This document shows, piece after piece, positions 11,671-45,196 of a stretch of 64,000 bases of DNA. The DNA lies in IMG/VR virus record IMGVR_UViG_3300021426_000009, positions 10,121-74,120 of that record; one strand, written 5' to 3'. Numbering within the stretch: position 1 is the stretch's first letter; every line of letters starts with the position of its first letter. The notes below the pieces were generated by a model. The model worked only from the letters and a program-made list of their open reading frames with translations, made no database searches and was not told the DNA's origin. The translations under genes and the position numbers were made by a program. This stretch comes from a virus. Its lineage: Duplodnaviria; Caudoviricetes.

Positions 11671-11678
11671 ATACTGAT

Positions 11679-16213: not shown

Positions 16214-16538
16214 GAAGATGAAGATTCTTGAACTGCCCCTGAAGTCAACATGGTATCTGATGATAGAACTGGGTATCAAGATTGAGGAGTACCGTGAGAT
16301 AAAGCAGTACTGGTGTAAGCGGCTCCTCGGACTTGACACGACTCTCTTCTCATACAGGAACGGCTATCAGTCGTGCAACGTGAAGGGCTATACGCACGTC
16401 CGTTTCCGCTACGGATATACGAAGAGGACAATGCTCTTCAGGATAGAGGACATCGTCATCGGCAGGGGCAATCCAGAGTGGGGAGCACCTGCGGAGAATG
16501 TATTCATCATCAAGATTGGAGAAAGGACTGGAGTATGA
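16206..16538 (+). CDS. ASCH/PUA-like domain protein
   Basis: LPLKSTWYLMIELGIKIEEYRE and V.FRYGY motifs. Confidence 0.75.
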   Translation: MDEKMKILELPLKSTWYLMIELGIKIEEYREIKQYWCKRLLGLDTTLFSYRNGYQSCNVKGYTHVRFRYGYTKRTMLFRIEDIVIGRGNPEWGAPAENVFIIKIGERTGV

Positions 16539-16693
16539 TAATCGTGGAACATGACAGAGGCTATAACCTCAGCTATATGGAGAGGGAGGATCTGCTCTCC
16601 CTACGAGAACTGATAAGGAACGGAGGACTCACGGAGTCACGAAGGTGGCACGGTGTCCTTGTCGAGATAAACGCAATCTTAAAGGACAAGTGA
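16535..16693 (+). CDS. Small hypothetical protein
   Basis: ATG at 16535 overlaps the previous stop. Confidence 0.55.
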   Translation: MIIVEHDRGYNLSYMEREDLLSLRELIRNGGLTESRRWHGVLVEINAILKDK

Positions 16694-16694
16694 T

Positions 16695-16922
16695 ATGGAG
16701 AATATGTTTGCCAACGACCCTGCAATGAGACACAGGGACAAGAAAGGCCGCTACGCAACAGCAGAGCGTGCCTATGCCGATAAGGCCATTGAGGAGAACA
16801 AGATGCTCAGGCATCAGGTCGAGAAATTCAAGCGTGCATGGATGGCTGCCGTCGACAACTCGTCGATGTGGCAGAGGAAGTACACGGAGCTGCTTACCAA
16901 GGTGAGGGAGGTGGCTCTATAA
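16695..16922 (+). CDS. Hypothetical protein
   Basis: ORF track. Confidence 0.6.
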   Translation: MENMFANDPAMRHRDKKGRYATAERAYADKAIEENKMLRHQVEKFKRAWMAAVDNSSMWQRKYTELLTKVREVAL

Positions 16923-16937
16923 AACGAAGTTTCGATT

Positions 16938-17036
16938 ATGACAACGTTTTGTTTGATATTCGCAGCCGGAATGGTCGTGGGCTTTATGCTCGGAATAACT
17001 GCCGTAGCACTTTTGGGAATGAATAAGGACAAGTGA
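16938..17036 (+). CDS. 32-aa single-TM peptide (not in ORF track)
   Basis: MTTFCLIFAAGMVVGFMLGITAVALLGMNKDK; translated by hand. Confidence 0.55.
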   Translation: MTTFCLIFAAGMVVGFMLGITAVALLGMNKDK

Positions 17037-17278
17037 GCTTTATGGTATTGAGAAACATCATCCAAGACAGGTTCAGACAATATGCAAAGATAGCGTTTGA
17101 ACATGTATTTACGAGGAACGAGATTGAGTACGTGCTGAGTCAGACCATGAGGGATCTGACTGCTTCGCAGAAAAGTCGTCGTCCCTTCAGGCTGATGGAT
17201 TCTCTCAGGTCAAGGACAGACCAGGTCATGAAGGCAAGGAAAGATGTTGAGGAACTTTTAAACGAACTGAACCTATGA
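17033..17278 (+). CDS. Hypothetical protein
   Basis: ORF track; true start may be ATG 17042. Confidence 0.5.
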   Translation: MSFMVLRNIIQDRFRQYAKIAFEHVFTRNEIEYVLSQTMRDLTASQKSRRPFRLMDSLRSRTDQVMKARKDVEELLNELNL

Positions 17279-17433
17279 ATAGAGATTTCTGCTACTGCAA
17301 AGGAAGGAACTGCAGGCTCCGTGATCTGTGCAAGCGATACCTCGAAGGGACGAGAATCAACGAGGACGCTGGCAACTACTGGTGGATAGATAATTGTGAC
17401 GAGGAGACAAGAGAGTGTTATATCAGGGAATAG
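17275..17433 (+). CDS. 52-aa Cys-rich protein (not in ORF track)
   Basis: MNRDFCYCKGRNCRLRDLCKRYLEGTRINEDAGNYWWIDNCDEETRECYIRE; ATGA-coupled to the upstream gene. Confidence 0.65.
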   Translation: MNRDFCYCKGRNCRLRDLCKRYLEGTRINEDAGNYWWIDNCDEETRECYIRE

Positions 17434-17436
17434 GAC

Positions 17437-17724
17437 ATGGCAAAGAAGTACAAGTACAAGCGTGAGCATTTCGACTCCAACGAGGAGTATGCCAGTTTCA
17501 GGAAGCGTGCTACGGCTGGCTACAGGAAATGGCTCGAAAAGCATGAGAAGGAGCATCCTGAATACAAGGAACGCAGGATTCTCCGTCAGAGGCTTTACTC
17601 GAGGTACTACTGGCATGGGGACGGCAGGCAGACGTTCGCACAATGGCTGGAGGAGAACCTCGGGATAAAGGACATCAAGGTGGTTCCATTGGAGGATCTG
17701 AGGGTCATCGCAAGCAAAAGTTAA
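17437..17724 (+). CDS. Basic hypothetical protein
   Basis: ORF track. Confidence 0.6.
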   Translation: MAKKYKYKREHFDSNEEYASFRKRATAGYRKWLEKHEKEHPEYKERRILRQRLYSRYYWHGDGRQTFAQWLEENLGIKDIKVVPLEDLRVIASKS

Positions 17725-17843
17725 ACATTCTGAATATCAGGACGTTAGCCCGAAAATACTTGCGTTTTTCCTTGGTCATTTGCAAAAAAATGACTACCTT
17801 TACACTATAAAAAAAGAAACTCATCTAAAAGTTAAGAGCAATG
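17713..17843 (+). repeat. Promoter cassette repeat copy R1 (TTG-N20-TACCTTTA ... AAGAGCAATG)
   Basis: Shares AAAAGTTAAACATTCTGAA and an identical TTGCAAAAAAATGACTACCTTTACACTATAAA core with 31132-31257 and 38213-38342. Confidence 0.9.
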
Positions 17844-18221
17844 GATAAGAAACAAGAAATCGAGATTTTGCAGTCCCTAAAAGGTGACACCTACTTCGCA
17901 GACTTTTTCGGAAGTCATGACATCGACCAGATGTGCGAGAACATCAAGAACGACTTCGGGCTGGAATACTGCTGCACGTTCTATCAGAAGGCTTCCATCT
18001 TCGAGCAGCAGGTCAAGGAAGCCAAGAAAAAAGCCCAGGAGGACAAGCAGAACTTTGTTCGAGGTCTGATTGAGGACTTCGAGGGTAGCATTCCGATGCA
18101 GATTTATGACCGACTGGTTGATGCCGTCGGACAGTTGTTCATCATCAACTTCAAGAGAGAACAGAACTATCCGCTGACGGAAGCCGAGATCGACTGGCTC
18201 GTAAAGGAAGCGAACAAGTAA
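17841..18221 (+). CDS. Hypothetical protein (island 1)
   Basis: First gene behind R1. Confidence 0.75.
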   Translation: MDKKQEIEILQSLKGDTYFADFFGSHDIDQMCENIKNDFGLEYCCTFYQKASIFEQQVKEAKKKAQEDKQNFVRGLIEDFEGSIPMQIYDRLVDAVGQLFIINFKREQNYPLTEAEIDWLVKEANK

Positions 18222-18278
18222 GAAGTTATAGGTAACGGGAGGGGTAACCGCCCTCCCACTAAGAGCAATATAAGAAAC

Positions 18279-19196
18279 ATGGAAGTAAAGATTTTAGGAT
18301 GGTCGCCATCCAAGACATTCAGAGAGGATGGAAGCAACATGAAGATTAACGTTCATGTACGTCTGCATGACGAGTGTAAGAACGGGCATTACGACTTCAG
18401 CATCACAGGCGAGGTGTACAGACAGGCCGCTAACGGACGATGGGTCGATGACAGATGCGGTTGCATCCATGAGGACATCGAGAGACTGTTCCCTCAGCTG
18501 AAGAAGTTCATCCCCCTGCATTGCTGCAACTACCTCGGACACCCGATGTACCCTGAGGCCAACGGCCAGTACTTCATCAGGGAGAAGGGCAAGGAGGTTG
18601 CGATGGAGCAGCTTCGTATCACGGAGAAGGAGTACGACATTCTCAGCCTCGCAGCAGATGACGAGGAGCGTCCGTATTTCAAGTACCTGCTGTTCACTCT
18701 CGGAATCGTTGATCGCTGGAAGCAGGAAGCCGACGAGTTCATCAAGTTCCTCGAGGAGAAGACAGGCAATACGTGGGTCAACCCATACAAACCCGAGGAA
18801 GAGCGCAACATCATGCGCCTGACAGAGGATGAGCGCAATGAGATTAAGAAGAAGATCGATGAGGGCTACTATTCGGTGGAAGCCCAGAAGGCACGTAGGG
18901 AGGCACGCTACAAGGCTGCCCAGGATGCCATCAGGAACAGAATCATCGAGAGATACGAAGAGACGGAGAGGAAAGCCCGTGAGGAGCGTGACATCAAGCT
19001 GTACATCTTCGACAGCGGGATGCCCATCGACAACGTGATTTACTACGACCACACGAAGCAGGTGGTGTTCAACTGGCAGGACTGGGAAAAGAAGGTCACT
19101 CAGGAGCAGTTCGTGGATTTCGTCAACAAGGTCGACTACTCAAAGCTGCCGGAGGGTGTGACGTTCCACTTCGGCAAGGATGACAGGAAGAAGTAA
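18279..19196 (+). CDS. Hypothetical protein with Cys/His motifs (island 1)
   Basis: DECKNGHYDFSITG, GCIHEDI and LHCCNYLGHPMY motifs. Confidence 0.75.
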   Translation: MEVKILGWSPSKTFREDGSNMKINVHVRLHDECKNGHYDFSITGEVYRQAANGRWVDDRCGCIHEDIERLFPQLKKFIPLHCCNYLGHPMYPEANGQYFIREKGKEVAMEQLRITEKEYDILSLAADDEERPYFKYLLFTLGIVDRWKQEADEFIKFLEEKTGNTWVNPYKPEEERNIMRLTEDERNEIKKKIDEGYYSVEAQKARREARYKAAQDAIRNRIIERYEETERKAREERDIKLYIFDSGMPIDNVIYYDHTKQVVFNWQDWEKKVTQEQFVDFVNKVDYSKLPEGVTFHFGKDDRKK

Positions 19197-19226
19197 CATG
19201 AGTATTAACGAATAAAGATTAAGAGT

Positions 19227-19877
19227 ATGGAATTTTTCAAGACGATTGCAGATTTCCTGCAGGACGGCCAACAGGTTACGATGGCCATCAGAAAGAGCGG
19301 TGGCAACATCGCAGTGAGTATCATGCCCGACAACCGAGGTGTCAAGGATAAGGCAGTGGAGAACATCACTCCGCTGGTCATGAGCGGCACACCCGAAGAC
19401 TTCGAGGAAGGCTTCAAGGATGCCCTCAAGCCGCTGGCACAGGCTCAGGGACTGGTGTCCAACATCAAGGAGTTCGAGGAGGGAACGGAGAAGGCAAAGC
19501 GTGAGTCCGAAATGGCTAAGAAGCTCAAGGACGAGGCGGCCAAGCAGAAGAAGGAGTTCAACGACCTCATCACTCTCGCACGTAAGAACAAGGACGAGCA
19601 CAAGTTCAAGGATGCACGTTCCATCCTCGCCAAGGCATCGGCACTGCCGTCTGCCGACAAGGCTCTCATCGGTAAGGTGATGAAGGAGATCGACGATACA
19701 GCCGGTGTGGGCAACATGTTCATACAGGAGGAGGACAAGAGTGACGGCAAGGACTTGGGAGCCAAGGCTCCTGAGAAACCTTCAGAGGCAAAGCCCGAAG
19801 ATGCAGCAGCTGCTGACGCTTTTGCTCAGGCAATGGAGTTAGATGACAATGATAACGAAAACGAAGAGGAGGAATAG
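19227..19877 (+). CDS. PRTRC system protein E
   Basis: MEFF..IA, I.VS..P and PLVMSGTPEDFEEGF..AL..P motifs; first gene of the cassette. Confidence 0.85.
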   Translation: MEFFKTIADFLQDGQQVTMAIRKSGGNIAVSIMPDNRGVKDKAVENITPLVMSGTPEDFEEGFKDALKPLAQAQGLVSNIKEFEEGTEKAKRESEMAKKLKDEAAKQKKEFNDLITLARKNKDEHKFKDARSILAKASALPSADKALIGKVMKEIDDTAGVGNMFIQEEDKSDGKDLGAKAPEKPSEAKPEDAAAADAFAQAMELDDNDNENEEEE

Positions 19878-19880
19878 TAT

Positions 19881-20093
19881 ATGGCACTGAATGTAACAGG
19901 AATGAAGCGTGTGTTCAAGCATGGAACACGAGAGTTGGAAGACCCCGACAAGAACATGTCCCCTGAAGAGGTGATGCAGTTCTACTCGGCTACCTATCCA
20001 GAGTTGACGACGAGTAACGTACACGGCCCGAAGGTCGATGACCGTAACAGGGCTGTGTATGAGTTCAAGACGACAGTTGGTACTAAGGGATGA
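19881..20093 (+). CDS. PRTRC system protein C (ubiquitin-like, C-terminal Gly)
   Basis: LEDPDKNMSPEEVMQFYSATYPELTT ... TTVGTKG-stop. Confidence 0.9.
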   Translation: MALNVTGMKRVFKHGTRELEDPDKNMSPEEVMQFYSATYPELTTSNVHGPKVDDRNRAVYEFKTTVGTKG

Positions 20094-20097
20094 AGAA

Positions 20098-21285
20098 ATG
20101 CAACAAGGAGCTACCAGAGTTTCACAAGGCTTTGTATTCGGTACTGGAGTCAGAACGAAGGCAAGAGTTCAGGGCAAGGGACGAGGAGCGGCAACCGCTG
20201 CTCCCTCCCTCTGCGCCCCTGCTTTTCTGACCTCCCCGATACGACCGATACGTCCGACGAGCGAAGATACCGCTGCAAGGCTGGAGATAGACATAGACAA
20301 GAGCTATGCCAACGTCTCCGCAAGCCTTAGGCGGTTCTTCAAGGTCGTTGGTATCGAGTACGACTACGAGCCGAAGAAGGACCTCACAAGGGCTCAGCAG
20401 CTTGGAGAGCTGATAGACTACGGAGAGAAGAAGATGGATTCTCTCGGACTTTCCCTTGCGGTCAGTAAGAAGGATTGTCAAGGAGGCGATGTCGATACCC
20501 TTGAATGTGTGGTGTATCGGTGGGGTAAGGAGTTAGAGGACACGATCGTCATCCTCTATTGTGCCCCTGCTGTATATATGTCCCCTGAAGGTTGTCAGAT
20601 GTACAAGCGGTTCATGAAGTTCGTCACGGTGAGCACGGGAATACCTCTCGGCATCCCTGAGCATACGGAGAACTTCTACCTTGACTGCATCGTCAACATG
20701 GATGATGACTACATGTACGAGGATGAAGAGGAAGAGGAAAAAGACCCTGTCATCCTGAAGTACAGGCAGGACGGTGAGTTCTGGAACCTCTTCGACGAGA
20801 TTGGAGGACTGCCTAAGGAGAAGCCTGGCGATCTGTATGCAGCACTCGATGACTACCGCCAGCGATGTCCGGATGATGAGACAGAGGTGGTGGAGGCCAT
20901 GATGGAGGGCATAGACATCATCAAGTATGCGAACTACTACTGGTTCGAGTTCAACCCAGACGATGACGGGCTTCCCAACGAGTGGGGCAACGACAGCGCA
21001 GACGGATATGCAAGCAGCGTGTTCGCCTCTGCCATCCTCTTCTCCGAGCAGGACGGAATCTCAGAGCAGCTGCTGGACACCGTGAACAACGAAGTGAATG
21101 CCGGTATCATGATGACTGGCTGGAATATTCATCAATGGCTGTCACCGAAGACGGCGAAGGCCGACATACTCGAGTTCATGCGATGCAAGGACCTGTGCGC
21201 ATCACTCGATGACTGGCTGAGGACGTTCTATCGGGCAACCGAGAAATTTGACTTATATGGGAAATCTGAGCAAGATACTGAATGA
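20098..21285 (+). CDS. PRTRC-associated protein (protein F position)
   Basis: Sits between C and B; acidic, about 395 aa; likely start MQQG at 20098. Confidence 0.6.
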   Translation: MQQGATRVSQGFVFGTGVRTKARVQGKGRGAATAAPSLCAPAFLTSPIRPIRPTSEDTAARLEIDIDKSYANVSASLRRFFKVVGIEYDYEPKKDLTRAQQLGELIDYGEKKMDSLGLSLAVSKKDCQGGDVDTLECVVYRWGKELEDTIVILYCAPAVYMSPEGCQMYKRFMKFVTVSTGIPLGIPEHTENFYLDCIVNMDDDYMYEDEEEEEKDPVILKYRQDGEFWNLFDEIGGLPKEKPGDLYAALDDYRQRCPDDETEVVEAMMEGIDIIKYANYYWFEFNPDDDGLPNEWGNDSADGYASSVFASAILFSEQDGISEQLLDTVNNEVNAGIMMTGWNIHQWLSPKTAKADILEFMRCKDLCASLDDWLRTFYRATEKFDLYGKSEQDTE

Positions 21286-21955
21286 GAAACTGGAGGCTAC
21301 CGATGCTTTGGTGTTCTACAAGAGCAACCTCAATGAGGGTGCGTATGTGGAGCATCGTCCAATCATAAACGGAGCGATGTGCGCAGGTAAGCCTCTCGAA
21401 GTCGATGTCATAGCAAAGCTGCTGAAGACGGTCGACAAGTATGCGCACGGAACAACGTCGATGGTGTCACTCCATGGAGAGATACCTGAGAACCTGCTGT
21501 ATGCCAGTACGAGCATCGACTCCTACCGACTGGTGTGGTACAGGAAGCCGGAGAAGAGAATGTTCTTTTTCTCCGAGAGCCTCGGCATACCGAACGGGGA
21601 GGTGATGGTTCCTGGTCTTGTCTATGTGACGGACGGCAAAGGCCTCTCGATGTATGCCTTCAAGGGAAGGAAGCCGAAGAAGCTGCTGTATCAGGCTCCG
21701 TTCTTCAATACGAGCACAAACGTATGCCTCGGAAACGGAAAGCTGCCAAAGCCGAAGGATCAGACCTATGCGAACTGGATGGCCTACTGGGAGGAGCTGT
21801 TTTGGAAGACGGAGTTCTCCCACCTGATGGGCGGCAACCCTGTCAAGGGTAACCTCTCCATCATCATGAAGGAGTGCATAAGCGGTCACAAACCGTTCCC
21901 TGTGAACTCACTGATAGCAACAAGAACAACCCTACAAGCATTATACAGGAAATGA
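21257..21955 (+). CDS. PRTRC system protein B (prokaryotic E2-like)
   Basis: LVWYRKPEKR..FF, VPGLVY and LYQAPFFN...NVCLGN (candidate catalytic Cys), WEELFWKTEFSH. Confidence 0.88.
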   Translation: MGNLSKILNEKLEATDALVFYKSNLNEGAYVEHRPIINGAMCAGKPLEVDVIAKLLKTVDKYAHGTTSMVSLHGEIPENLLYASTSIDSYRLVWYRKPEKRMFFFSESLGIPNGEVMVPGLVYVTDGKGLSMYAFKGRKPKKLLYQAPFFNTSTNVCLGNGKLPKPKDQTYANWMAYWEELFWKTEFSHLMGGNPVKGNLSIIMKECISGHKPFPVNSLIATRTTLQALYRK

Positions 21956-22728
21956 AGTACAAGCATTATGTTCATCCGTACATTTTAGACCCTGCGCATC
22001 CGCTGACGGTAGCCTTGATAGGTGCCGGAGGGACAGGCTCACAGGTGTTGACCTCCCTCGGTAGGATGAATTACGCATTGAGGGAGCTCGGCCATCAGGG
22101 CCTGCATGTGAAGGTGTATGACGCAGACATCGTGACAGCTGCCAACTGCGGACGTCAGCTTTTCTCCCCAGTGGAGGTAGGACGGAACAAGGCAGAGGTG
22201 TTGACAACGAAGCTGAACATGTTCTTCGGAACGTCATGGGAAAGCATCCCCGAAATGTATGACGAGAGGACTGGACACACGAACTTCGTGATTTCATGCG
22301 TCGATACGGTTGCATCGAGGCTGGCCATCAGGAAGAACATTATCAGGGAGGACTCAAGAGCCGCCCGTGGCTATGACATGGAGAGAAGCTACTACTGGCT
22401 GGACTTCGGCAACACGCAGTCCACAGGTCAGGTGATACTCGGAACGACGAGAGACCTCTCCTGCAACAAGCGGAAGGATAATGTCGGTCTGTTAAGGTGC
22501 GTGACGGACTTCTTCGACCTCAGCAAGGTCAACGAGAAGAAGAGCGGCCCAAGCTGCTCACTCGCTGAAGCACTGACGAAGCAAGACCTGTTCATCAACT
22601 CTACTCTCGCCCAGATAGGCATGGCGATTCTTTGGAAGATGTTCTCGAAGGGAGTACTGGAGACACAGGGTGCCTTCCTGAACCTCGATACGATGAAAGT
22701 GAATCCGATAAAGGTAGAGAAGATATGA
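21952..22728 (+). CDS. PRTRC ThiF-family E1-like enzyme
   Basis: LIGAGGTGSQV, D.D.V..ANCGRQ, ISCVD, WLDFGN and PSCSLAEAL..QDLFIN motifs. Confidence 0.92.
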   Translation: MKYKHYVHPYILDPAHPLTVALIGAGGTGSQVLTSLGRMNYALRELGHQGLHVKVYDADIVTAANCGRQLFSPVEVGRNKAEVLTTKLNMFFGTSWESIPEMYDERTGHTNFVISCVDTVASRLAIRKNIIREDSRAARGYDMERSYYWLDFGNTQSTGQVILGTTRDLSCNKRKDNVGLLRCVTDFFDLSKVNEKKSGPSCSLAEALTKQDLFINSTLAQIGMAILWKMFSKGVLETQGAFLNLDTMKVNPIKVEKI

Positions 22729-23003
22729 AGAAGTTCAAGTTCACTCAGGCCGTCAGGATAGGCAAGAACATCAGCGACATCTTTAAGCTGAGGTGTGTTA
22801 GCTTCATCAGCAAGAACCCTCCGATATGCGGTCCGCATTTTCACCTGTACCCAGGTCTGATGTGGGACTACAAGGAGGATCTGTCGCACAGGCACGTTGC
22901 CCATGAGGGTGACTGGCTTTGCGAGGACGAGGATGGTCTTTGGCATATCCTCAGTGACGACGAGTATCAGAAGGACTACGGAAATGATGTCAATCAGGAA
23001 TGA
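22725..23003 (+). CDS. Hypothetical protein
   Basis: ATGA-coupled; AHEGDWLCEDEDGLW motif. Confidence 0.6.
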   Translation: MKKFKFTQAVRIGKNISDIFKLRCVSFISKNPPICGPHFHLYPGLMWDYKEDLSHRHVAHEGDWLCEDEDGLWHILSDDEYQKDYGNDVNQE

Positions 23004-23266
23004 GTATGGGAAGGCCGGTAGGTAACGGACTGATTGAGTTGGTCGATGAGAAGTCTCATGACAGAGGCTTCTTCTGTATGGAATTGACGGCATTCATCAG
23101 GAAGGAGTCAAAGGAGTCTGGACGGACGATAGCCGATCTGTGGGACGAGCGTTTCGGGGAGGCAAGAAGCGGTGTATGCCGCTATCGCAACACCTGCCAC
23201 ATCTATGCGAGAACGATGGGCAAGGTAGAGAAAAGACCGATACAGCTCCAGTTGGAGTTTCTTTGA
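23000..23266 (+). CDS. Hypothetical protein
   Basis: ORF track. Confidence 0.55.
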   Translation: MSMGRPVGNGLIELVDEKSHDRGFFCMELTAFIRKESKESGRTIADLWDERFGEARSGVCRYRNTCHIYARTMGKVEKRPIQLQLEFL

Positions 23267-23363: not shown

Positions 23364-23762
23364 ATGAAGATATATACAAGTTATTTCGGAAACCTCAGAG
23401 CGTTAGGAAACGCTGGCATAATGCCGATCAGCATAGCAAGATATTCGCCAAAATGGTATGACGGGGCACGTTTCCCTGGTGTCGCTCCGACGAGTTACAT
23501 GCTCAGCGGTGCTTGCAGCCATGAGGAATACCTGAAGAAGTATCAGGAGATACTGAACAGACTGGACCCTCATCAGGTGATTAAGAACATTCAGGCATTC
23601 AGCGGAGGCAGGGACGTGGCTCTCTGCTGCTACGAGAAGCCTGGCGATTTCTGTCACCGACACCTCCTTTCGGAATGGCTGAGGAACAACGGCTATGATG
23701 TGAATGAATGGAAGCCGGAGGAGAAGAAGGAGGAAGTCCAGCAGCTGTCGCTATTCGATTAG
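23364..23762 (+). CDS. DUF488-like protein
   Basis: MKIYTSYF, ISIAR..PKWY, LAP-like GVAPT and LCCYEKPGDFCHRHL motifs. Confidence 0.8.
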   Translation: MKIYTSYFGNLRALGNAGIMPISIARYSPKWYDGARFPGVAPTSYMLSGACSHEEYLKKYQEILNRLDPHQVIKNIQAFSGGRDVALCCYEKPGDFCHRHLLSEWLRNNGYDVNEWKPEEKKEEVQQLSLFD

Positions 23763-23837: not shown

Positions 23838-23911
23838 GGACCGATAGCTCAGCAGGATAGAGCGGCTGCCTCCTAAGCAGCAGGTCGGGGGTTCGAATCC
23901 CTTTCGGTTCA
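23838..23911 (+). tRNA. tRNA-Arg(CCT)
   Basis: Full cloverleaf: GGACCGA/TCGGTTC, GCTC/GAGC, GCTGC-CTCCTAA-GCAGC, GGGGG-TTCGAAT-CCCTT. Confidence 0.92.
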
Positions 23912-23968
23912 CAGACTGGAGAAGATGTAGGGGTCAGGGTGAAATCCATAAGCCCTGATGAGTAAAGG

Positions 23969-24021
23969 GAAGCCAGATGTGGATGCTGGCAAACATGCAG
24001 GTTCGAATCCTGTCAGCTTCA
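23969..24021 (+). ncRNA. Truncated tRNA-like element (acceptor-like stem, one hairpin, perfect T-arm)
   Basis: GAAGC/GCTTC, GCCAG/CTGGC and GCAGG-TTCGAAT-CCTGT; no canonical D plus anticodon arms. Confidence 0.45.
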
Positions 24022-24027
24022 AAGGTT

Positions 24028-24097
24028 TAGCAGTTAGCTCAAGTAGAGCGCCCGATCGCTAATCGGGAGGTTAAGGGTTCGAGTCCCTTACTGCGCA
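24028..24097 (+). tRNA. Non-canonical tRNA-like RNA, anticodon GCT in a class-I body
   Basis: CCCGA-TCGCTAA-TCGGG arm with C33; short variable loop; only 5 acceptor pairs (GCAGT/ACTGC); 5-nt D loop. Confidence 0.6.
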
Positions 24098-24185
24098 TCT
24101 ATATCGGTGTTCCGTTACGGAGCGAGTAAGTCCAGGAAAAGAGGCACGCAGTCCAATCGACATGACCGAAACGGACACCGAAAAT

Positions 24186-24257
24186 CGCGGAGTAGAGCAG
24201 TGGTAGCTCGCTACGCTCATAACGTAGAGGTCGCAGGTTCGAGCCCTGTCTCCGCAA
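24186..24257 (+). tRNA. tRNA-Met(CAT), initiator-like body
   Basis: CGCGGAG/CTCCGCA with C1:A72 mismatch; CTACG-CTCATAA-CGTAG anticodon arm. Confidence 0.88.
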
Positions 24258-24332
24258 CAGAGAGAGTACTTAGCCGTAGAGGAAACTCCCCAATAAACAC
24301 GAAACGGCATGAACGTGCGAGTCGTCATGGTA

Positions 24333-24419
24333 GAACAAGTAGCTATAAGTCGGTAGTCCGACATTGGTGAGAGCCCCGTCGTGTACGGGAGGTTTTGGGT
24401 TCGAGTCCCGACTTGTTCA
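24333..24419 (+). tRNA. Non-canonical tRNA-like RNA (nominal anticodon GTG) with a hairpin inserted in the D loop
   Basis: GAACAAG/CTTGTTC 7-bp acceptor; GTCGG-TAGT-CCGAC insert; CCCG-TCGTGTA-CGGG; TTGGG-TTCGAGT-CCCGA. Confidence 0.55.
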
Positions 24420-24436: not shown

Positions 24437-25504
24437 ATGAAAGTAGCAATTATCGGAACTGGGAACGTCGGCATCGCCATAGCTGCCGACTTGTCTATCA
24501 GGGAGCATGAGGTGTCCCTGATAAAGACGTCAAATGTGAGATCGGAGGCCTATGACAGGCTTCTCAGGAACAACAACCGTGTGTACTTAAAGGAGGACGG
24601 AACCTATACGCAGACCACCATCAAGGAGGTAACACGGGACATCACTAAGATTTCGGATGCGGAGGTGGTCATCGTGACCATCCAGAGCACCTACCACGAA
24701 GAGCTGTACAAGAGGATAGCCCCGTATCTGAAAGGCAGTCAGGTGGTGCTCATCATCTGCAGCTATATGTCTTCTTTCTACCTGTCGAAGTATTGTCAGG
24801 TGCTGCCTGCCATCGCAGAGGCTACTGGCCCCTACCTCGAGGGTCGTGTGGAACTGAACGATATGAAGGAAGAGGTGGTATTTAGGGTAGGATGCAGGCT
24901 TACGAGAAGCCCGCTGTCGGTGTTCCATCCAAATCGTGCCAATGAGTGCATGGAGAAGCTGAAAGCCCTGTACAAGGGCCTGAGCAACGACTACTCTGTC
25001 ATAGAGTCAGCCCTGCTGAACCCGAACCTCGTGATTCACACCGTAGGAGCCGTCATGAGCATCCCTCGCATCGAGTACAGCGACGGGAACTTCTGCATGT
25101 ATCGTGAGGCTTACAGTCACAAGAACCAGGCCACGCTCAACGTCATGTTCAAGCTGGATGAGGAGAAGAAGAAAGTTCTGATAGCGCTCAACAGCAGGGG
25201 TATCGACATCTTGGAGGCCGGTGGCTTCCTGAAGGGCATGGAGAGCTTCTATGAGTATTCCGAGTCGGAAGACAGGGCCATCAGTCCGACCTCGATACAC
25301 TCGAGATACATCACGGAGGACGTTTCTCAGGGACTGGTACTGATGGAGAGCATAGCCAACTATCTCGGTATCATCGTGCCAGTTACGACTTCTCTCATAG
25401 ACCTCGCAAGCGCAGCCCTCGGCATTGATTTCAGGCTCGAGGGACGCAGTATATTCTCGCTGGATGCCGACAGATACATTGACCACCTGACGCATAGACT
25501 ATGA
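24437..25504 (+). CDS. NAD(P)-dependent opine (octopine/nopaline) dehydrogenase family protein
   Basis: MKVAIIGTGNVG Rossmann motif; LLNPNLVIHTVG and SRYITEDVSQGL match Octopine_DH domain motifs. Confidence 0.88.
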   Translation: MKVAIIGTGNVGIAIAADLSIREHEVSLIKTSNVRSEAYDRLLRNNNRVYLKEDGTYTQTTIKEVTRDITKISDAEVVIVTIQSTYHEELYKRIAPYLKGSQVVLIICSYMSSFYLSKYCQVLPAIAEATGPYLEGRVELNDMKEEVVFRVGCRLTRSPLSVFHPNRANECMEKLKALYKGLSNDYSVIESALLNPNLVIHTVGAVMSIPRIEYSDGNFCMYREAYSHKNQATLNVMFKLDEEKKKVLIALNSRGIDILEAGGFLKGMESFYEYSESEDRAISPTSIHSRYITEDVSQGLVLMESIANYLGIIVPVTTSLIDLASAALGIDFRLEGRSIFSLDADRYIDHLTHRL

Positions 25505-27576
25505 ATATCGGAGAAGACCTGAAGACCCGAACCTTCGGTGTGGAGATAGAAATGTGTAACCTCGACAGGCAACTGGTCAAGCTGCCGGATGGTTACTCAT
25601 GGAGCAAGGATGAGGAAATCGTGAATACGGACGGGTCGAGCAACAAGCGTTTCGGTGGAGAGGTGAACACCCCTCCACTCTGTGTTTACAGCATGAAGGA
25701 CCTCCACAGCCTGAAGGCCTGCTATGACTCCATGAGGGAGGCTGGAGGTGTGATAAAATGGACTACCTACACGCACGTCCATGTTTATGCAGGAGACCTG
25801 ACTGTCGAGCATATAAAGAAGGTATGGCTCTTCTTCTATATCTGCTACCCTTGGTGGAAGAGATACACGAAACTCTCCGACTGGGACGAGCTGACGTTCA
25901 ACTGCCAGCCGCTGCCGACAGAGAAGTACTACAAGGGACTGCTGGAGGCAGAGACCTTCGAGGACATCAACAAGCTGTTCACGAACCAGTCGAAGAAGGG
26001 ATTCATCAGGCATGCCTGCAATATCTCAGCATACTTCAAGACGAAGACCATAGAGTTCAGGACATATCACGGCACGAGCGATTTCAGGGAGGCCATGAAC
26101 TGCGTCCTCTCGACGTACCGTCTGTTCTACTATGCCGTCAACCATGATTTGGATGACTACAAATCCATTTCCTCATATGAGCAGTTTTTGCAGGCTACGG
26201 GACTCAAATACGAGGTCCCAAGAGAGCTTGTTCCTCTACTCTACCAAGGAAACCCCTATAGTGCCATCGAGACGTTCCAGACGAGATCCCTGCCGTATAA
26301 CTCGAAGCAGGCATCGGCATTGTGGGAGGCCGTCAAGAATCACGGGCACAAGGAGCTCTGCATCGTGAACGGCTTCATGTACTACTACGAGCTGTTCTTT
26401 ATGGACAAGGTGAAGCTCTCCATCTATGCCCAGGACCCGTACTGCCATCTGCTGTGGATGATAGCCAACGGCAAGATAACGCTGAAGTACAAGGAGAAGT
26501 TGTCATGGCTGGAGGACTATAATAACGAAACCCCGTCACGGCAGCTTGCGATTGCCTTGTATGCGGAGAAACTGCAGAAGTTCTCAATGAGCGATTCCAA
26601 GAGGAACGAGGCTGTCATCGAGTCGGTCAAGATACGTGCCAAGGAATCCATCGAGAAGACGGAGAAGGGCTGCGAACGTCTCATGAAGCTGCTGACCACC
26701 TGCGAGTACCATGTTGGAACGCTTCAGGATGCCATACCTCAGAAGAGCGTGATATTCTTCAACTACGGCAAGGACAAGACGCAGAAGCGAACGTTCAAGC
26801 TGATAGCGGAGAACAGCGACTTGGAAATGGAGTTCAACTGCAAGCGCAATGACTACTACGAGGTGATAGAGTCCCTGCCAAAGGAGTCATACTTCTATTA
26901 CTTCAGCAACAGCCCGTACCTGCGTAACATGCACAAGCTGGCCATGTGGGACTCGTCAAGCGGAGACAGGTGGTCTGCAGGCCGTTTCCTGTACTGCAAC
27001 AAGCCGAGCAACCAGAATCAGGTCAGCACGTCATACAAGTCGAACCATGTGGAGGTGAACGAGATCGTCCCGCCTGATGACCTGGTCATCGACAACCCGA
27101 ACAGCCTGAAGATAGTAAGGGTCAGCTCATCGTCACTCCATTGTCTTCAGAAGAAGTACATCAAGAAGGTCGACCAGTGCAGCATGTGCACCTATGCCTT
27201 CGTCGTGATGTACGAGAAGTACACCCTCGGAGGCTTCGGCTTCACGCTTCCTCAGCACAAGGGCTACGACCTGTTCCAGCTGACGGATTTCTGCACGAAC
27301 AACAATATCCCACGACTGGCGAAGCTGATACTGCTCTGCATACAGACGGCCGGTGTGCAGAAGGAACTCTCACGAAGGATGCACAAGCTGTGCGAGAAGG
27401 TCATATCATGTGCCTATACGCACAAGCCTGTCAGTATGAAGTACAGGGGTGTCTATACGAAGGTGAAGGAGCATTGCACAACCTCATACCTCGCATACGA
27501 GGGACAGCTGGGCAAGTTCGCCACCAACAAGGAGGTAATAGAGAAATATCGTAAAATGTTGAATAATGGAAATTGA
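25501..27576 (+). CDS. Three-domain protein: amidoligase (COOH-NH2 ligase type 2), degenerate adenine-MTase-like domain, Mom/GNAT-like C-terminus
   Basis: N-term RTFGVEIEM, DGS, GEVNTPPL, HVHV, TIEFR. C-term LTDF...RLAKLILL...CAYT.KPVSMKYRG resembles ParB-linked phage DNA-modification proteins. No NPPY/DPPY-type motif is visible in the middle domain. Confidence 0.72.
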   Translation: MNIGEDLKTRTFGVEIEMCNLDRQLVKLPDGYSWSKDEEIVNTDGSSNKRFGGEVNTPPLCVYSMKDLHSLKACYDSMREAGGVIKWTTYTHVHVYAGDLTVEHIKKVWLFFYICYPWWKRYTKLSDWDELTFNCQPLPTEKYYKGLLEAETFEDINKLFTNQSKKGFIRHACNISAYFKTKTIEFRTYHGTSDFREAMNCVLSTYRLFYYAVNHDLDDYKSISSYEQFLQATGLKYEVPRELVPLLYQGNPYSAIETFQTRSLPYNSKQASALWEAVKNHGHKELCIVNGFMYYYELFFMDKVKLSIYAQDPYCHLLWMIANGKITLKYKEKLSWLEDYNNETPSRQLAIALYAEKLQKFSMSDSKRNEAVIESVKIRAKESIEKTEKGCERLMKLLTTCEYHVGTLQDAIPQKSVIFFNYGKDKTQKRTFKLIAENSDLEMEFNCKRNDYYEVIESLPKESYFYYFSNSPYLRNMHKLAMWDSSSGDRWSAGRFLYCNKPSNQNQVSTSYKSNHVEVNEIVPPDDLVIDNPNSLKIVRVSSSSLHCLQKKYIKKVDQCSMCTYAFVVMYEKYTLGGFGFTLPQHKGYDLFQLTDFCTNNNIPRLAKLILLCIQTAGVQKELSRRMHKLCEKVISCAYTHKPVSMKYRGVYTKVKEHCTTSYLAYEGQLGKFATNKEVIEKYRKMLNNGN

Positions 27577-28267
27577 AGACAGATGGAAGTACGATGTGGT
27601 TGACATCAACCTCATCGACGAGGCGGAACTGAACGCCAATGAAATGACTGGAGAGGACTTCGCCACCTTGTGTGAGAACATCGGCAAGTCCGGACTGAGC
27701 AGTGTCCCGTGCTGCTACAAGAAGAAGAACGGAAGGTTCGGCATGATAAGCGGCCACCACAGGCTCAGGGCATGCAAGAAGAACCATTTCGCCAAGATCG
27801 GCATCCTTTGGTGTGACGAGGATGAGCTGTCTCAGGATGAGATTATAGCCATCCAGCTGTCTCACAACTCGCTGCACGGAGAGGACAACAAGAGCATCCT
27901 GAAGAAGTTGTTCGAGCAGATTCAGAGCATAGACTTCAAGAAGTTCGCCCACATCAACATCGACGAGGTGGCTCCCGTCAGCACGGACGGCATCAGCATC
28001 TTCGCCTTGAAGGAGAACTTCGTGTTCACGATAATACTCTACCCCAACTCGTTCGAGAACCTTGACGAGCTGTACGGGGACATACGTGAGCAGGCAAAGA
28101 AGAGCGATGCCCTCATTCTCGCAGACCAGACCAACGAAATGCTTCTGCTGAAGCTGCAGCAGGACATCGGCAACCAGTATAACATCAAGTCGCCATCCAT
28201 CACGTTCGCCAAGCTGCTGGAGCTGGCCAAGGAGAGGCTTGAGGAAGTGAAGGAGGGCAAGGAATGA
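27566..28267 (+). CDS. ParB/Srx-like protein
   Basis: ELNANEM, ISGHHRLRA and QLSHNSLHGED motifs. Confidence 0.88.
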   Translation: MEIEDRWKYDVVDINLIDEAELNANEMTGEDFATLCENIGKSGLSSVPCCYKKKNGRFGMISGHHRLRACKKNHFAKIGILWCDEDELSQDEIIAIQLSHNSLHGEDNKSILKKLFEQIQSIDFKKFAHINIDEVAPVSTDGISIFALKENFVFTIILYPNSFENLDELYGDIREQAKKSDALILADQTNEMLLLKLQQDIGNQYNIKSPSITFAKLLELAKERLEEVKEGKE

Positions 28268-29130
28268 TCTGGACGATAGTAAGCAAGGCCGAAATGGAGG
28301 GGTATGCCATCCCTCCAGTCTTCCAGTATTACAGGGAGGTAATAGGCAGGGAGAACATCAGCCTGTCTGTAGTGGACGAGGATGACCCTCTCGACTTCAT
28401 CAGATATGGTGATTTGGTGCTGTTACGCACGGCAAGCAGGAAGCTCATCGAGACGATAGAGAGTAAGGGTGTGGCCACTACGGCAGAGCACTACTCGGTC
28501 TATCAGCAGGCAAGCGACAAGGCAGAGCTGGGACGCTTTCTCTTCGAGCATGGCATCAAGGTGCCGAGACAGTACAGCATCGACAACCTCCAGCCGGGAA
28601 GCACGTATTTCGTCAAGCCTCGTTACGGAAGCGAGAGCTTCGGCATTACGGAACACAATATATGCCACAGCAAGGAAGATGTCAGGTTTCAGGTCATGCG
28701 GCTGCAGGAACTGGGCTATGAGAGTATCATCGAGGAGTTCATCGATGGAAATGATGCGACTGTAGCCTGCTATTACAATCCTGAGAACAGCGTAGTGTAT
28801 GCCCATGCCATTGCCGTCGATTGTGAGACGAAGGGCTCCATTCAGACGCACAAGGGCAAGTTCGACTACAATGAGTACTGCTATGCACTGAGAGGATCTG
28901 TAGGCAAGAAGGCTTGCGCCATGAGCAGGGAGGTGTTCAGATTACTCGGCATCAGGCATCATGCGAGGATAGACTTCCGCTTCACGGAGAGAGGTGATGT
29001 GTACCTCATCGACGTGAACCTGCTGCCCGGCCTCGGTCCGTCGGCTCATTTCTCGAAATGCCTGCTTCTGACGGAGAACATTTCGTATGCGGACACCATC
29101 ATGAACATTTTGAAATCAGCAAGAGGATAG
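28264..29130 (+). CDS. ATP-grasp ligase (Ddl/RimK-like)
   Basis: SDK, FVKPRYGSESFG, EEFIDG, RIDFR and IDVNLLPG motifs. Confidence 0.9.
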   Translation: MIWTIVSKAEMEGYAIPPVFQYYREVIGRENISLSVVDEDDPLDFIRYGDLVLLRTASRKLIETIESKGVATTAEHYSVYQQASDKAELGRFLFEHGIKVPRQYSIDNLQPGSTYFVKPRYGSESFGITEHNICHSKEDVRFQVMRLQELGYESIIEEFIDGNDATVACYYNPENSVVYAHAIAVDCETKGSIQTHKGKFDYNEYCYALRGSVGKKACAMSREVFRLLGIRHHARIDFRFTERGDVYLIDVNLLPGLGPSAHFSKCLLLTENISYADTIMNILKSARG

Positions 29131-29132
29131 AT

Positions 29133-29486
29133 ATGGCAAAGAACATTTCGATTGAGGACATCGTAAAGATGTACGAGAAGAAGGGTTGCAACATCACGGC
29201 AACCTGTGCTGCCCTGAATATCTCCCGTAAGACTTTCTACGAATGGAAGGAGAAGAAGAAGAAGCTCGCAGAGGGTCTGGAGGAGGCAGAGGAGGCTGTC
29301 CTCGACTGGGCAGAGAGCAAGCTGAAGGAGCATATCCAGAACGATGATCTGCAGGCCCTGATATTCTTCCTGAAGACGAAGGGTAAGAAGAGGGGCTATG
29401 TAGAGAAGACGGAGACCGACGTGAACATCAACCAATTCGAAAAGCTCATGCAGGAAACGGAGGATGATGACGATGACGATGAGTAA
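29133..29486 (+). CDS. terS: Terminase small subunit
   Basis: N-terminal HTH (CNITATCAALNISRKTFYEW), ALIFFLKTKGKKRGY; directly precedes terL. Confidence 0.82.
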   Translation: MAKNISIEDIVKMYEKKGCNITATCAALNISRKTFYEWKEKKKKLAEGLEEAEEAVLDWAESKLKEHIQNDDLQALIFFLKTKGKKRGYVEKTETDVNINQFEKLMQETEDDDDDDE

Positions 29487-30997
29487 TGGGTAGTTCCGAC
29501 AAGCGACATAACAAGATGCGAGCGTGGCGCAAGGACTGGTGTTTATTCGCCAAGCAAGTGCTCCACGCTCGTCTCGACAAAGAGCAGAAGGAAATCCTGC
29601 GAGCCATACAGAATGAACGCATGGTTGCCGTAGCTTCGGGTACAGCCCGAGGCAAGGACTATATTGCCGCTGTCGCATGCCTGTGCTTCATGTACCTCAC
29701 TCCCCGATGGAAGGACGGCCGTCTGGTGAAGAATACCAAGATTGCGATGACGGCTCCTACCGACCGACAGGTGAGGAACATCATGGTTCCTGAGGTCAGA
29801 CGTCTCTACAAGGCCGCTCAGGTGCTGCCTGGCCGTCTTGTCGGCTATGACATACGAACGGAGTATGAGGAATGGTTCCTGACAGGCTTCAAGTCGAGTG
29901 CGGACAATACGGAGGCATGGTCTGGATTCCATGCCGTGAACACGATGTTCGTGGTGACGGAGGCATCGGGTATCTCGGAGACTATTTACAATGCCATCGA
30001 GGGTAACCTGCAGGGCAACTCACGACTGCTGCTTGTGTTCAACCCGAACGTAACTACTGGCTATGCGGCCAATGCCATGAAGTCGGCACGTTTCAAGAAA
30101 TTCAGGCTCAACTCCCTGAATGCCGAGAACGTTGTCAGGAAGAAGAACGTCATCCCAGGTCAGGTGGACTATGAATGGGTGAAGGATAAGGTCGAGAACT
30201 GGTGCATCCCCATCAGGGAGGAAGATGTCAACGAGGGAGAGGGAGACTTCTTCTGGGAAGGACGCTGGTACAGACCGAACGACCTCTTCCGTGTCAAGGT
30301 TCTCGGAATGTTCCCGAAGGTGGCGGAGGACGTGCTCATACCATACGAATGGGTGGAGATTGCCAACAGACGATGGCTGGAGCTTCAGGAGGAGGGCTTC
30401 ACCACGAAGAAGAAATGCAGACTCGGTGTCGACGTGGCCGGTATGGGTCGAGACTCGTCCGTCCTGTCCCCGAGATACGGTAACTACCTCGGAGAGTTCG
30501 AAGTCCACAACTCCGCTGGTGTGGCAGACCACATGCACGTCGCAGGCATGGTGTCCAACTACCTCGTCAAGAAAGGCACGAAGGCCTTCATCGATACCAT
30601 CGGTGAGGGTGCAGGTGTCTATTCGAGGCTGAAAGAACTCGGCTACGACTATGCCTATTCGTGCAAGTTCTCGGAGAATGCCAACGGCCTCCATGACATC
30701 ACGGAGGTCTATACGTTCGCCAATATGCGTGCCTACCTGTACTGGGCTGTCAGGGACTGGCTGAACCCGAAGAACGGCTTCGAGCCTGCCGTACCGCCAA
30801 ACGATCTGTTTATGCAGGAGTGTACGGAGGTGCACTGGAAGTTCCAGAGCAGCGGAAGCATCATCATAGAGAGCAAGGATGACATCAAGAAGCGCCTCGG
30901 AAGGTCTCCTGACTACCTCGATTCGGTGGCCAACACGTTCTACCCGAGGGACTACGAGACACTGCAGGAAAGCGAGATTTTCGGAGATTTCCTCTAA
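29486..30997 (+). CDS. terL: Terminase large subunit
   Basis: SGTARGKDY, Walker B VVTEASG, coupling motif FNPN, nuclease motifs GVDVAGMG.D and SPDYLDS. Confidence 0.93.
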   Translation: MGSSDKRHNKMRAWRKDWCLFAKQVLHARLDKEQKEILRAIQNERMVAVASGTARGKDYIAAVACLCFMYLTPRWKDGRLVKNTKIAMTAPTDRQVRNIMVPEVRRLYKAAQVLPGRLVGYDIRTEYEEWFLTGFKSSADNTEAWSGFHAVNTMFVVTEASGISETIYNAIEGNLQGNSRLLLVFNPNVTTGYAANAMKSARFKKFRLNSLNAENVVRKKNVIPGQVDYEWVKDKVENWCIPIREEDVNEGEGDFFWEGRWYRPNDLFRVKVLGMFPKVAEDVLIPYEWVEIANRRWLELQEEGFTTKKKCRLGVDVAGMGRDSSVLSPRYGNYLGEFEVHNSAGVADHMHVAGMVSNYLVKKGTKAFIDTIGEGAGVYSRLKELGYDYAYSCKFSENANGLHDITEVYTFANMRAYLYWAVRDWLNPKNGFEPAVPPNDLFMQECTEVHWKFQSSGSIIIESKDDIKKRLGRSPDYLDSVANTFYPRDYETLQESEIFGDFL

Positions 30998-45120: not shown

Positions 45121-45194
45121 GCGGAGATAGCTCAGCTGGTCAGAGCGTGGCAATTCCATTGTCAAGGTCGGTGGTCCGACTCCACCTCTCCGCT
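45121..45194 (+). tRNA. tRNA-Gly(TCC) inside the tail operon
   Basis: GCGGAGA/TCTCCGC plus U73; GCTC-AGCTGGTCA-GAGC; TGGCA-ATTCCAT-TGTCA; GGTGG-TCCGACT-CCACC (atypical T loop). Confidence 0.78.
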
Positions 45195-45196
45195 CT

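Follow-up and report, generated by a model that had tools for sequence, protein, structure and literature searches.

A tRNA-Gly-associated phage gene module ahead of the terminase genes, with a possible role in DNA adenine modification

In a 64,000-nucleotide stretch of a Caudoviricetes genome (IMG/VR record IMGVR_UViG_3300021426_000009, bases 10121-74120; hereafter the window), we characterized a run of genes that leads into those for the small and large terminase subunits (terS and terL) and whose core recurs in about 270 related loci. At its center is a 691-amino-acid (aa) fusion of a COOH-NH2 ligase domain, a Dam-like domain, and a Mom-like GNAT domain, accompanied by a ParB-like protein, a small DUF488 protein, and, in most relatives, a tRNA-Gly gene. 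We propose that this module performs ParB-assisted, tRNA-Gly-dependent glycylation of DNA adenine, with the adduct then extended on the base by amide ligases, a reading to which we give an even chance. Its parts are not equally secure: a DNA substrate of some kind is likely, the case for Gly-tRNAGly as the donor is evenly balanced, and N6 of adenine as the target is a more tentative assignment that falls a little short of even. The tRNA-Gly link and a clamp-type motif in the DUF488 protein are new here.

A conserved core ahead of the terminase genes

The genes of the module all lie on the plus strand and are tightly packed, and the four ahead of terS are coupled in translation. An opine dehydrogenase (24395/24437..25504; 355 aa counted from the ATG at 24437) is followed by the fusion enzyme (25501..27576; 691 aa), a ParB/Srx-like protein (27566..28267; 233 aa), an ATP-grasp ligase (28264..29130; 288 aa), a terS of the helix-turn-helix (HTH) type (29133..29486; 117 aa; phrog_309 at 2e-12, with a weak GP3_package match), and terL (29486..30997; 503 aa; phrog_2 at 1e-29). 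ATGA overlaps occur at 25501/25504 and 28264/28267, the fusion and ParB genes overlap by 11 nucleotides (nt) (27566/27576), the gap between the ATP-grasp gene and terS is 2 nt (29130/29133), and terS and terL share 1 nt at 29486. A first-pass annotation made from the letters alone had described four genes with overlapping or abutting ends that run into terS and terL; the list of open reading frames (ORFs) reproduces every one of its overlaps and abutments exactly, and Pfam, PHROGs, and NCBIfam bear out all of its domain calls.

The whole survey covered about 270 loci, which are related to one another, and the close-relative set consists of 80 IMG/VR contigs whose fusions are 68 to 90% identical to that of the window. 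The gene order fusion-ParB-ATP-grasp is preserved in all 80 close loci, and most also carry terS (79), terL (76), an upstream DUF488-N3a gene (77), and the opine dehydrogenase (67); because order and partners recur across these contigs, the arrangement is not a product of chance. The ATP-grasp ligase is a fast-diverging accessory, being 29 to 88% identical to its relatives in the same loci against the 68 to 90% of the fusion, and the 13 close loci that lack an opine dehydrogenase carry an ATP-grasp type of their own. Distant fusions (24 to 36% identity) keep DUF488, ParB_N, and an HTH-type small terminase, together with a terminase-sized gene where the contig extends far enough, and the ATP-grasp ligase and opine dehydrogenase are absent from all distant relatives examined. 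Directly upstream of the fusion, these distant relatives encode two other proteins, one a small GNAT and the other weakly similar to Ala_racemase_N and D-ser_dehydrat, with a PDB profile match to diaminopimelate decarboxylase (E 0.31); for the latter protein we suggest a tentative identity as a pyridoxal phosphate (PLP) enzyme. In Clostridium prophages, phrog_2443, the family of the fusion, adjoins a gamma-glutamyl cyclotransferase (PMC11318856).

Across the roughly 270 loci the core is thus DUF488, the fusion (or a two-domain Dam-like/GNAT form of it), ParB, terS, and terL, in that order, and the opine dehydrogenase and ATP-grasp ligase are accessories outside it. The lineage-variable enzymes that surround the core act on amino acids or peptides wherever a confident family call could be made. 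The first-pass annotation had treated the opine dehydrogenase and ATP-grasp ligase as central, which the survey does not support, the former missing from 13 of the 80 close loci and both from the distant relatives; the fusion, ParB, and terminase genes that it grouped do belong to a conserved unit, from which it had left out DUF488 even though this is a core member.

In many relatives, terL begins 1.4 to 2.8 kb past terS and does not abut it (loci L012 and L014-L059; for example, L014:9653-11388), and something has therefore been inserted between the two. The complete chromosome of Muribaculaceae bacterium MF13079 (CP061009.1) carries two triple fusions, 33 to 34% identical to that of the window, each with a tRNA-Gly gene of its own upstream (TCC in L262, ACC in L263). 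We considered an upstream cassette at 19227-22728, which contains PRTRC_E, a prokaryotic E2 family D/PRTRC_B protein, and a PRTRC ThiF E1, as a possible part of the system and rejected it, since no relatives other than the six closest have this E1/E2 cassette.

The fusion enzyme and its folds

The whole fusion matches phrog_2443 (2.8e-198; PHROGs). Its N-terminal COOH-NH2 ligase domain (25501..26190, plus strand; residues 1-230) matches Amidoligase_2 (PF12224; residues 46-200, 4e-16, 60 bits against a Pfam cut-off of 22), an assignment with which an Atlas feature search concurs, and E15, E17, H94, R170, E185, and R187 are invariant across 23 full-length fusions with identities as low as 22%. 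The Dam-like Rossmann domain that follows (26215..27006, plus strand; residues 239-502) matches the Pfam family DAM-like-phage2 (PF22556; residues 239-419, 1.6e-95), and the C-terminal Mom-like GNAT domain (27088..27555, plus strand; residues 530-685) matches GNAT-phage-like (PF22559; residues 535-685, 5e-41), with G577, D596, an SMKYRG block at 645-650, and Y666 invariant in the same 23 sequences. The existence of these families in Pfam indicates that the architecture is already known to curators; the literature searched makes no mention of PF22556, PF22559, or this architecture, and an earlier comparative-genomics prediction of a nucleic-acid-modifying role is possible.

We built an AlphaFold2 model of residues 225-691 on 34 sequences (mean predicted local distance difference test [pLDDT] score, 88.8). 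A Foldseek search with this model recovered GNATs (2e-4), Rossmann methyltransferases (7e-4), Mom (3e-3), and Dam (6e-3). In VIA-align, the first-ranked structure was Mu Mom (8bv8_A), with a Z score of 11.2 and a root mean square deviation (rmsd) of 3.0 over 134 aa (fusion residues 530-672), while E. coli Dam (4rtn) aligned with a Z score of 10.8 and an rmsd of 4.6 over 191 aa (fusion residues 264-502) and DpnM matched the Dam-like domain at Z 9.2. As 134 of the 222 Mom residues align, the HTH-like insertion of Mom (175-209) is probably absent from the fusion. As to the essential Mom residues R111, S124, D149, and R151, a comparison by eye suggests a resemblance of MPRNSES of Mom to VPRLSK of the fusion and of VVYQASNF to SMKYRGxF. 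We read the structural match to Mom, which comes from a predicted model, as a fold plus a lead and not as kinship.

The first-pass annotation had called the middle domain methyltransferase-like, and its Dam-like fold agrees with this. In the 12 members checked, the domain contains neither the FxGxG motif for S-adenosylmethionine (SAM) nor the [DNS]PP[YFW] motif, and across 23 sequences it has almost no invariant residues and none of catalytic type. Since the Dam fold persists without its SAM and DPPY motifs, the domain appears to be a dead methyltransferase, and on the basis of the model we propose that it is, most simply, a DNA-binding, base-presenting module. A ubiquitin match at residues 224-273 (window 26170-26319) was judged spurious: this linker (consensus P....PLIFxG) matches a polyubiquitin profile at E 7e-4 with no single stretch passing, and it is mostly coil in the model.

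A related two-domain family of about 435 aa (phrog_7858) combines DAM-like-phage1 (PF22555) with GNAT-phage-like (PF22559). These proteins resemble the fusion in their homologous Dam-like and GNAT domains and in having DUF488, a ParB of the same family, terS and terL, and a tRNA-Gly directly upstream; they differ from it in lacking the amidoligase domain, the accessory ligase, and the dehydrogenase. In their Dam-like domain a glycine-rich stretch, VGCSGN, survives, as does part of motif IV in the form of PTY. The two-domain enzymes probably make a simple glycyl or carbamoylmethyl adduct.

tRNA-Gly genes and partner proteins

Among phage tRNA genes at large, far fewer than one in ten are for tRNA-Gly. 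We counted ARAGORN calls in three sets of loci, and Gly or Gly-like tRNAs account for 166 of the 198 called tRNAs in the three sets combined, usually directly upstream of the enzyme gene. The loci with the fusion contribute 105 tRNA-Gly and 19 "odd" (Gly-like) tRNAs among 150, those with the two-domain enzyme 27 tRNA-Gly among 32, and those in prokaryote genomes 13 tRNA-Gly and 3 Gly-like tRNAs among 16; one further tRNA-Gly occurs in a GNAT-only genome locus. The prokaryote-genome set includes Muribaculaceae and Dysgonomonas fusions of 24 to 35% identity, in which the tRNA lies 30 to 110 nt ahead of the gene. In the 80 close loci, the slot between DUF488 and the operon holds one or two tRNA-Gly (ACC, CCC, TCC, or GCC) or an odd tRNA in 76. 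When the two-domain family is collapsed to 20 clusters (50% identity, upstream DNA present), 11 have a tRNA-Gly, mostly 21 to 360 nt upstream on the same strand, and 1 of the 20 has another tRNA only. We found no description of this link, or of the chemistry of these enzymes, in the literature searched.

The odd tRNAs prove to be tRNA-Gly-like on alignment (GCGGAGA...TCTCCGC, U73, an NCC anticodon, and a six-base loop). An ACC anticodon, which is unusual in bacteria, or a six-base anticodon loop that ARAGORN reports as "???(tc/ac)" is found in L014:4766-4839, L084:5076-5147, L263:2893-2967, and many other loci, and these genes retain G1-C72, C2-G71, G3-C70, and U73. Judging from such features, they look as if selected for charging rather than decoding.

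The slot in the window (23838..24419, plus strand) holds Arg(CCT), "Ser(GCT)", and Met(CAT) tRNAs and two degenerate elements (ARAGORN and Rfam). The tRNA with a GCT (Ser) anticodon (24027-24099) has no long variable arm and would break the usual SerRS identity rules; it is kept in a close relative (L003:4764-4838). The degenerate tRNA-like elements (23921-24021 and 24333-24419; 22.9 and 29.7 bits in Rfam, uncalled by ARAGORN) have long insertions in the D or variable region, and the second stops 17 nt before the start codon of the opine dehydrogenase. The only tRNA-Gly of the phage, with a TCC anticodon, is at 45121..45195 on the plus strand (ARAGORN); it aligns as GCGGAGATAGCTCAG...CTCTCCGC-U73, as in loci L078 and L014, and belongs to the same family as the slot tRNA-Gly of relatives. 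Genuine Mom loci (L171-L250) contain four tRNA genes in 604 kb, three of them tRNA-Gly and perhaps host genes at prophage borders, and with so few tRNAs we dropped these loci as a base-rate control.

The ParB-like protein matches phrog_7405 (6e-72) and, less well, several ParB phrogs (1e-9 or weaker). The copy in the window has no Pfam match and scores 25 bits against the NCBIfam model parB_part, below its cut-off of 58, and its homologues bear weak PF02195 matches; an SGHHRLRA motif is invariant in the family. The same ParB family adjoins the two-domain Dam-like/GNAT enzymes (hhalign, 99.7%). A predicted complex of fusion and ParB scored 0.01, which weighs neither way. A ParB-like protein is needed for the activity of phage T-dioxygenases (5mYOX), among whose frequent neighbors are terminase genes (PMC13229309), so that the ParB partner which the first-pass annotation had posited for a DNA-modifying enzyme has experimental precedent. 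By analogy with these dioxygenases and with the co-occurrence of ParB and CmoX (PMC12783734), we propose that the protein acts as a DNA loader or activator.

The DUF488-N3a protein (23364..23762, plus strand; 132 aa) matches PF22751 (3e-11, 44 bits against a cut-off of 27), and in its alignment TSY, C89, and FCHRH (96-100) are invariant and E115 is kept too. Its tail, QQLSLFD, follows a variable charged linker of low pLDDT; an ending of the form Q..[LMI][FWY] is found in 101 of 120 DUF488 homologues, and the DUF488 beside a two-domain enzyme in locus L090 terminates in QLNLGL. The bacterial beta-clamp-binding motif has two classical forms, QL[SD]LF and the QLVLGL of Pol IV. The DUF488 tails match both, making the protein a candidate clamp binder, and we argue from these clamp-type tails that the module works on DNA. 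A Foldseek search of DUF488 against the PDB gave nothing at E <=0.001, and a VIA-wide search returned dual-specificity phosphatase, tetrapyrrole methylase, and RapZ-C types, all at Z <=6 and hence below the level of kinship.

These properties also lend themselves to a different DNA-directed explanation, in which the module works on termini or nicks, with DUF488 serving alongside the fusion as a clamp-tethered Cys enzyme of phosphatase/rhodanese-like type, for example by adding an aminoacyl or peptidyl cap that blocks exonucleases at ends arising from replication and packaging. The module always adjoins terS and terL, the DUF488 tail is of the clamp-binding type and clamps sit at 3' ends, and the weak fold matches of DUF488 are to dual-specificity phosphatases and RapZ-C; a 2023 paper on the rhodanese-phosphatase superfamily reportedly placed RapZ-C, DUF488, and DUF4326 in one clade and predicted DNA-end processing in virus-host conflict. 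However, a Dam-like domain joined to a Mom-like GNAT points to a flipped internal adenine, ordinary phage methylases also usually sit ahead of terminase genes, and the fold matches of DUF488 are too weak to establish kinship. We consider this explanation improbable, though the least so of the alternatives.

The two accessory enzymes raise the question of cell wall or small-molecule chemistry. The opine dehydrogenase matches Octopine_DH (PF02317; 1e-26, 94 bits against a cut-off of 30) and a Rossmann N terminus for NAD(P) in Pfam, and its full-length alignment with CENDH (1bg6; residues 4-342, 4e-12) shows that both the catalytic His202 and the RY..ED motif are retained. The ATP-grasp ligase matches Dala_Dala_lig_C (3e-14, 53 bits against a cut-off of 24) as well as ATP-grasp_3 in Pfam, and its PDB matches are Ddl and VanA; it is not a true Ddl, because its score falls far short of the equivalog cut-off of every NCBIfam Ddl model. 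Neither enzyme matched a PHROG family. A pathway of this kind would make or remodel a peptidoglycan-stem-like or opine-type peptide, using Gly-tRNAGly in a Fem-like manner and resembling opine metallophore pathways, and it might serve superinfection exclusion, the timing of lysis, or host metabolism. The affinity of the ATP-grasp ligase to D-Ala-D-Ala ligases, the intact catalytic residues of the dehydrogenase, the weak Ala_racemase_N and D-ser_dehydrat matches in distant relatives, and the textbook role of Gly-tRNAGly as the Fem donor all fit such a pathway, and a cell wall-modifying role has been suggested for amidoligases of phages (cited in PMC11318856). Yet it leaves the Dam-like domain, the obligatory ParB partner, the clamp-type DUF488, and the fixed position at the packaging module unexplained; the enzymes that look cell wall-like are variable accessories and not the core; and no FemX-type chains appear among the 50 structural neighbors listed. 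This makes it somewhat less credible than end capping.

The same enzymes could instead tag proteins, with the GNAT moving glycine from tRNA in the manner of L/F-transferases and the ligases extending the tag on a virion protein, terminase, or host DNA-bound protein. Some aminoacyl-tRNA protein transferases do have the GNAT fold (PMC13219725), structural genes lie close to the module, and the tagging of proteins by COOH-NH2 ligases and ATP-grasp enzymes is common textbook knowledge. The Dam-like fold and ParB nevertheless argue for a nucleic acid substrate, no conserved candidate target protein is encoded between the module and terminase, and the clamp motif and terminase linkage are left unexplained, so that we rate protein tagging as unlikely, below the cell wall alternative.

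Proposed pathway, source phage, and implications

In the glycylation pathway that we favor, the module, which lies ahead of the packaging genes, would be expressed late and would hypermodify DNA after its replication. The ParB-like protein would load on phage DNA and recruit or activate the fusion, whose dead Dam-like domain, as its Dam fold and lost catalytic motifs suggest, would grip the duplex and present the target adenine. The Mom-like GNAT would then transfer glycine from Gly-tRNAGly to the base, most likely to the N6 of adenine, a role suggested by its fold together with the tRNA-Gly link, and in most relatives a dedicated phage tRNA gene would supply the tRNA-Gly. The fused COOH-NH2 ligase, we infer, would trap the labile amine of the glycyl group, or a carboxylate that arises from it, through an ATP-dependent amide bond before a Mom-type rearrangement of the adduct could occur, and its fusion to the GNAT would make sense if its substrate is a short-lived N6-glycyl intermediate. 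Lineage-specific accessories would supply or lengthen the side chain; here these would be the Ddl-like ATP-grasp ligase and the opine dehydrogenase, and elsewhere a GNAT with a possible PLP enzyme or a gamma-glutamyl cyclotransferase. We regard them as tailoring steps because other lineages swap in other enzymes. The DUF488 enzyme, held to the host sliding clamp, would work on the same DNA. The result would be an adenine adduct of a peptide- or opine-like kind, guarding packaged DNA from host nucleases.

FemXAB enzymes have the GNAT fold and draw glycine from Gly-tRNAGly, and staphylococci dedicate to this purpose tRNA-Gly isoacceptors that are poorly fit for translation. The many linked tRNA-Gly genes described here, with their ACC anticodons or six-base loops, resemble these isoacceptors, whereas FemXAB acts on lipid II and has no DNA-binding domains, ParB, or terminase linkage. 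Mu Mom (PF25680) provides the closest precedent for the transfer to DNA. Mom takes glycine from Gly-tRNAGly to the N6 of adenine in duplex DNA, and since N6-acyl adenine is unstable, the N6-glycyl adduct rearranges to carbamoylmethyl (PMC13219725). Like Mom, the fusion has a GNAT fold, with Mom as its top structural neighbor, and both are phage encoded and late expressed; the tie to tRNA-Gly is biochemical for Mom (PMC13219725) and genomic here. Unlike the fusion, with which it shares no sequence or profile similarity, Mom is a single protein of 231 to 241 aa that binds DNA through an HTH-like insertion of its own. In the module, this task presumably falls to the fused dead Dam-like domain and ParB, an amide ligase is fused on, and a product larger than carbamoylmethyl is expected. 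The paper on Mom mentions neither phage tRNA genes nor this enzyme family (PMC13219725). The tRNA-Gly association and the Mom mechanism (PMC13219725) together suggest that glycine is more likely added first and extended on the base, and not, as the first-pass annotation had supposed, built into a finished group and then transferred.

That amide bonds are formed on DNA bases in nature at the cost of ATP is shown by CmoY, which places glycine on a DNA base and whose pathway co-occurs with ParB genes (PMC12783734). The CmoA/CmoX/CmoY system of Synechococcus phage S-B43, which makes 5-glycylcarboxymethyl-cytosine, resembles the module in combining a DNA enzyme of methyltransferase fold with an ATP-dependent amide ligase and in its co-occurring ParB-domain genes (PMC12783734). 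CmoX is, however, an active C5-methyltransferase homologue that uses carboxy-SAM, while the methyltransferase-like domain here has no cofactor motifs; the Cmo ligase is of the asparagine synthetase (AMP-forming) type and that of the fusion is of the glutamine synthetase/GCS2 type; and glycine here probably arrives on a tRNA. No CmoA was found among the window genes scanned. The 5mYOX T-dioxygenases share with the module a small ParB-like gene adjoining a post-replicative DNA-modifying enzyme and differ in enzyme class and target base, and a ParB requirement of the fusion is putative. The first-pass annotation knew of no characterized pathway with this enzyme set, and the papers searched describe none.

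Several observations weigh against the glycylation pathway. The Mom match leads ordinary GNATs by only about 1 Z unit (next GNAT, Z 10.2); the fusion has no PF25680 (Mom) match at E <=0.01 and the 34 family members have none at E <=10; hhalign of the GNAT domain against Mu Mom found nothing, and a profile of the domain matched a 22-sequence Mom profile at E 0.085 over 24 columns. The earlier prediction of a C-terminal GNAT/Mom domain is sustained at the level of fold, for the model of the domain is a GNAT whose best structural neighbor is Mu Mom, but by sequence the domain is not a member of the Mom family. The tRNA slot of the window is without a tRNA-Gly, the sole one being located elsewhere, at 45121; some relatives have none (loci L004-L006 and L085-L089); and kinship among the loci makes the raw counts overstate independence. 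Peptidoglycan metabolism, too, typically involves chemistry of the Ddl-like, possibly racemase-like, and Fem-like (Gly-tRNA) kinds. Finally, the tRNA could be the target and not the donor, with the GNAT acylating or altering Gly-tRNAGly as the toxin TacT does by acetylation (PMC13219725) and the phage tRNA-Gly serving as substrates, decoys, or replacements in the control of translation; despite the strong tRNA-Gly link and odd anticodon arms that suggest something other than ordinary decoders, we find this the least probable alternative, as it leaves the Dam-like domain, ParB, clamp motif, and terminase linkage unexplained and the top structural neighbor is Mom and not a toxin GNAT.

The source is a temperate Bacteroidales phage of the ruminant gut. 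Its record is 74,120 bp long, has direct terminal repeats, and is estimated to be 100% complete. A tyrosine integrase of Bacteroidota type is encoded at 372-1688 on the minus strand, and almost all other genes are on the plus strand; close protein relatives carry the names Bacteroidales or Caudoviricetes. The stretch or part of it occurs in assembled contigs from 20 sequencing runs in 9 studies, mostly of ruminant gut, and near-identical DNA is present in sheep, bovine, and other animal gut metagenomes. In the early region (4425-16538) there are genes for a LuxR/GerE-type regulator, an AAA_24 ATPase, DUF3127, an SNF2/DEAD-type helicase, NinG, and DUF6633. No DNA polymerase, dUMP hydroxymethylase, or active DNA methyltransferase emerged when 20 ORFs at 4425-23263, about half of them without any match, were scanned with Pfam, and in PADLOC the fusion, ParB, opine dehydrogenase, and ATP-grasp ligase matched no defense system family.

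Among 50,697 cultured-phage records, megablast gave no match to the 5-kb region, and the one similarity that tblastn of the fusion recovered in cultured phages was a 22% GNAT-domain stretch in ten Mycobacterium phages; on these searches, of a set that may lack near-identical records, a cultured model phage is lacking. Full-length homologues of the fusion are present in the cultured lysogens Prevotella sp. KH2C16, P. vespertina A2879, Muribaculaceae MF13079, and Capnocytophaga catalasegens KC07084, and such lysogens, or E. coli expressing the genes, would allow a direct test of the hypothesis.

Whether the module combines a Mom-type, tRNA-dependent adenine modification with fused and accessory amide-forming enzymes, ParB, and a clamp-tethered DUF488 is a judgment that could fall either way. 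A broader claim is rather unlikely, namely that a widespread phage enzyme family carries out tRNA-dependent nonribosomal peptide synthesis on DNA: dedicated phage tRNA-Gly genes, many of them ill suited to decoding, would give glycine to adenine by way of a Mom-like GNAT guided by a dead Dam domain and a ParB loader, the fused and accessory amide ligases and an opine dehydrogenase would enlarge the adduct to a composition that differs among lineages, and a clamp-tethered DUF488 enzyme would participate. Mom has so far been a single-enzyme oddity; if our proposal is correct, tRNA-dependent adenine modification would be a broad and elaborated strategy of gut phages, spanning those of Prevotella, Bacteroides, Muribaculaceae, Alistipes, Capnocytophaga, and others and yielding new adenine adducts. 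It would also give a function to the uncharacterized Pfam families DAM-like-phage1/2, GNAT-phage-like, and DUF488-N3a, account for the lone odd tRNA-Gly of many phages, and add a second class of enzymes that depend on a ParB partner. Such adducts would bear on restriction, CRISPR, and the sequencing of gut viromes, and the enzymes that make them may provide tools for site-specific DNA labeling.

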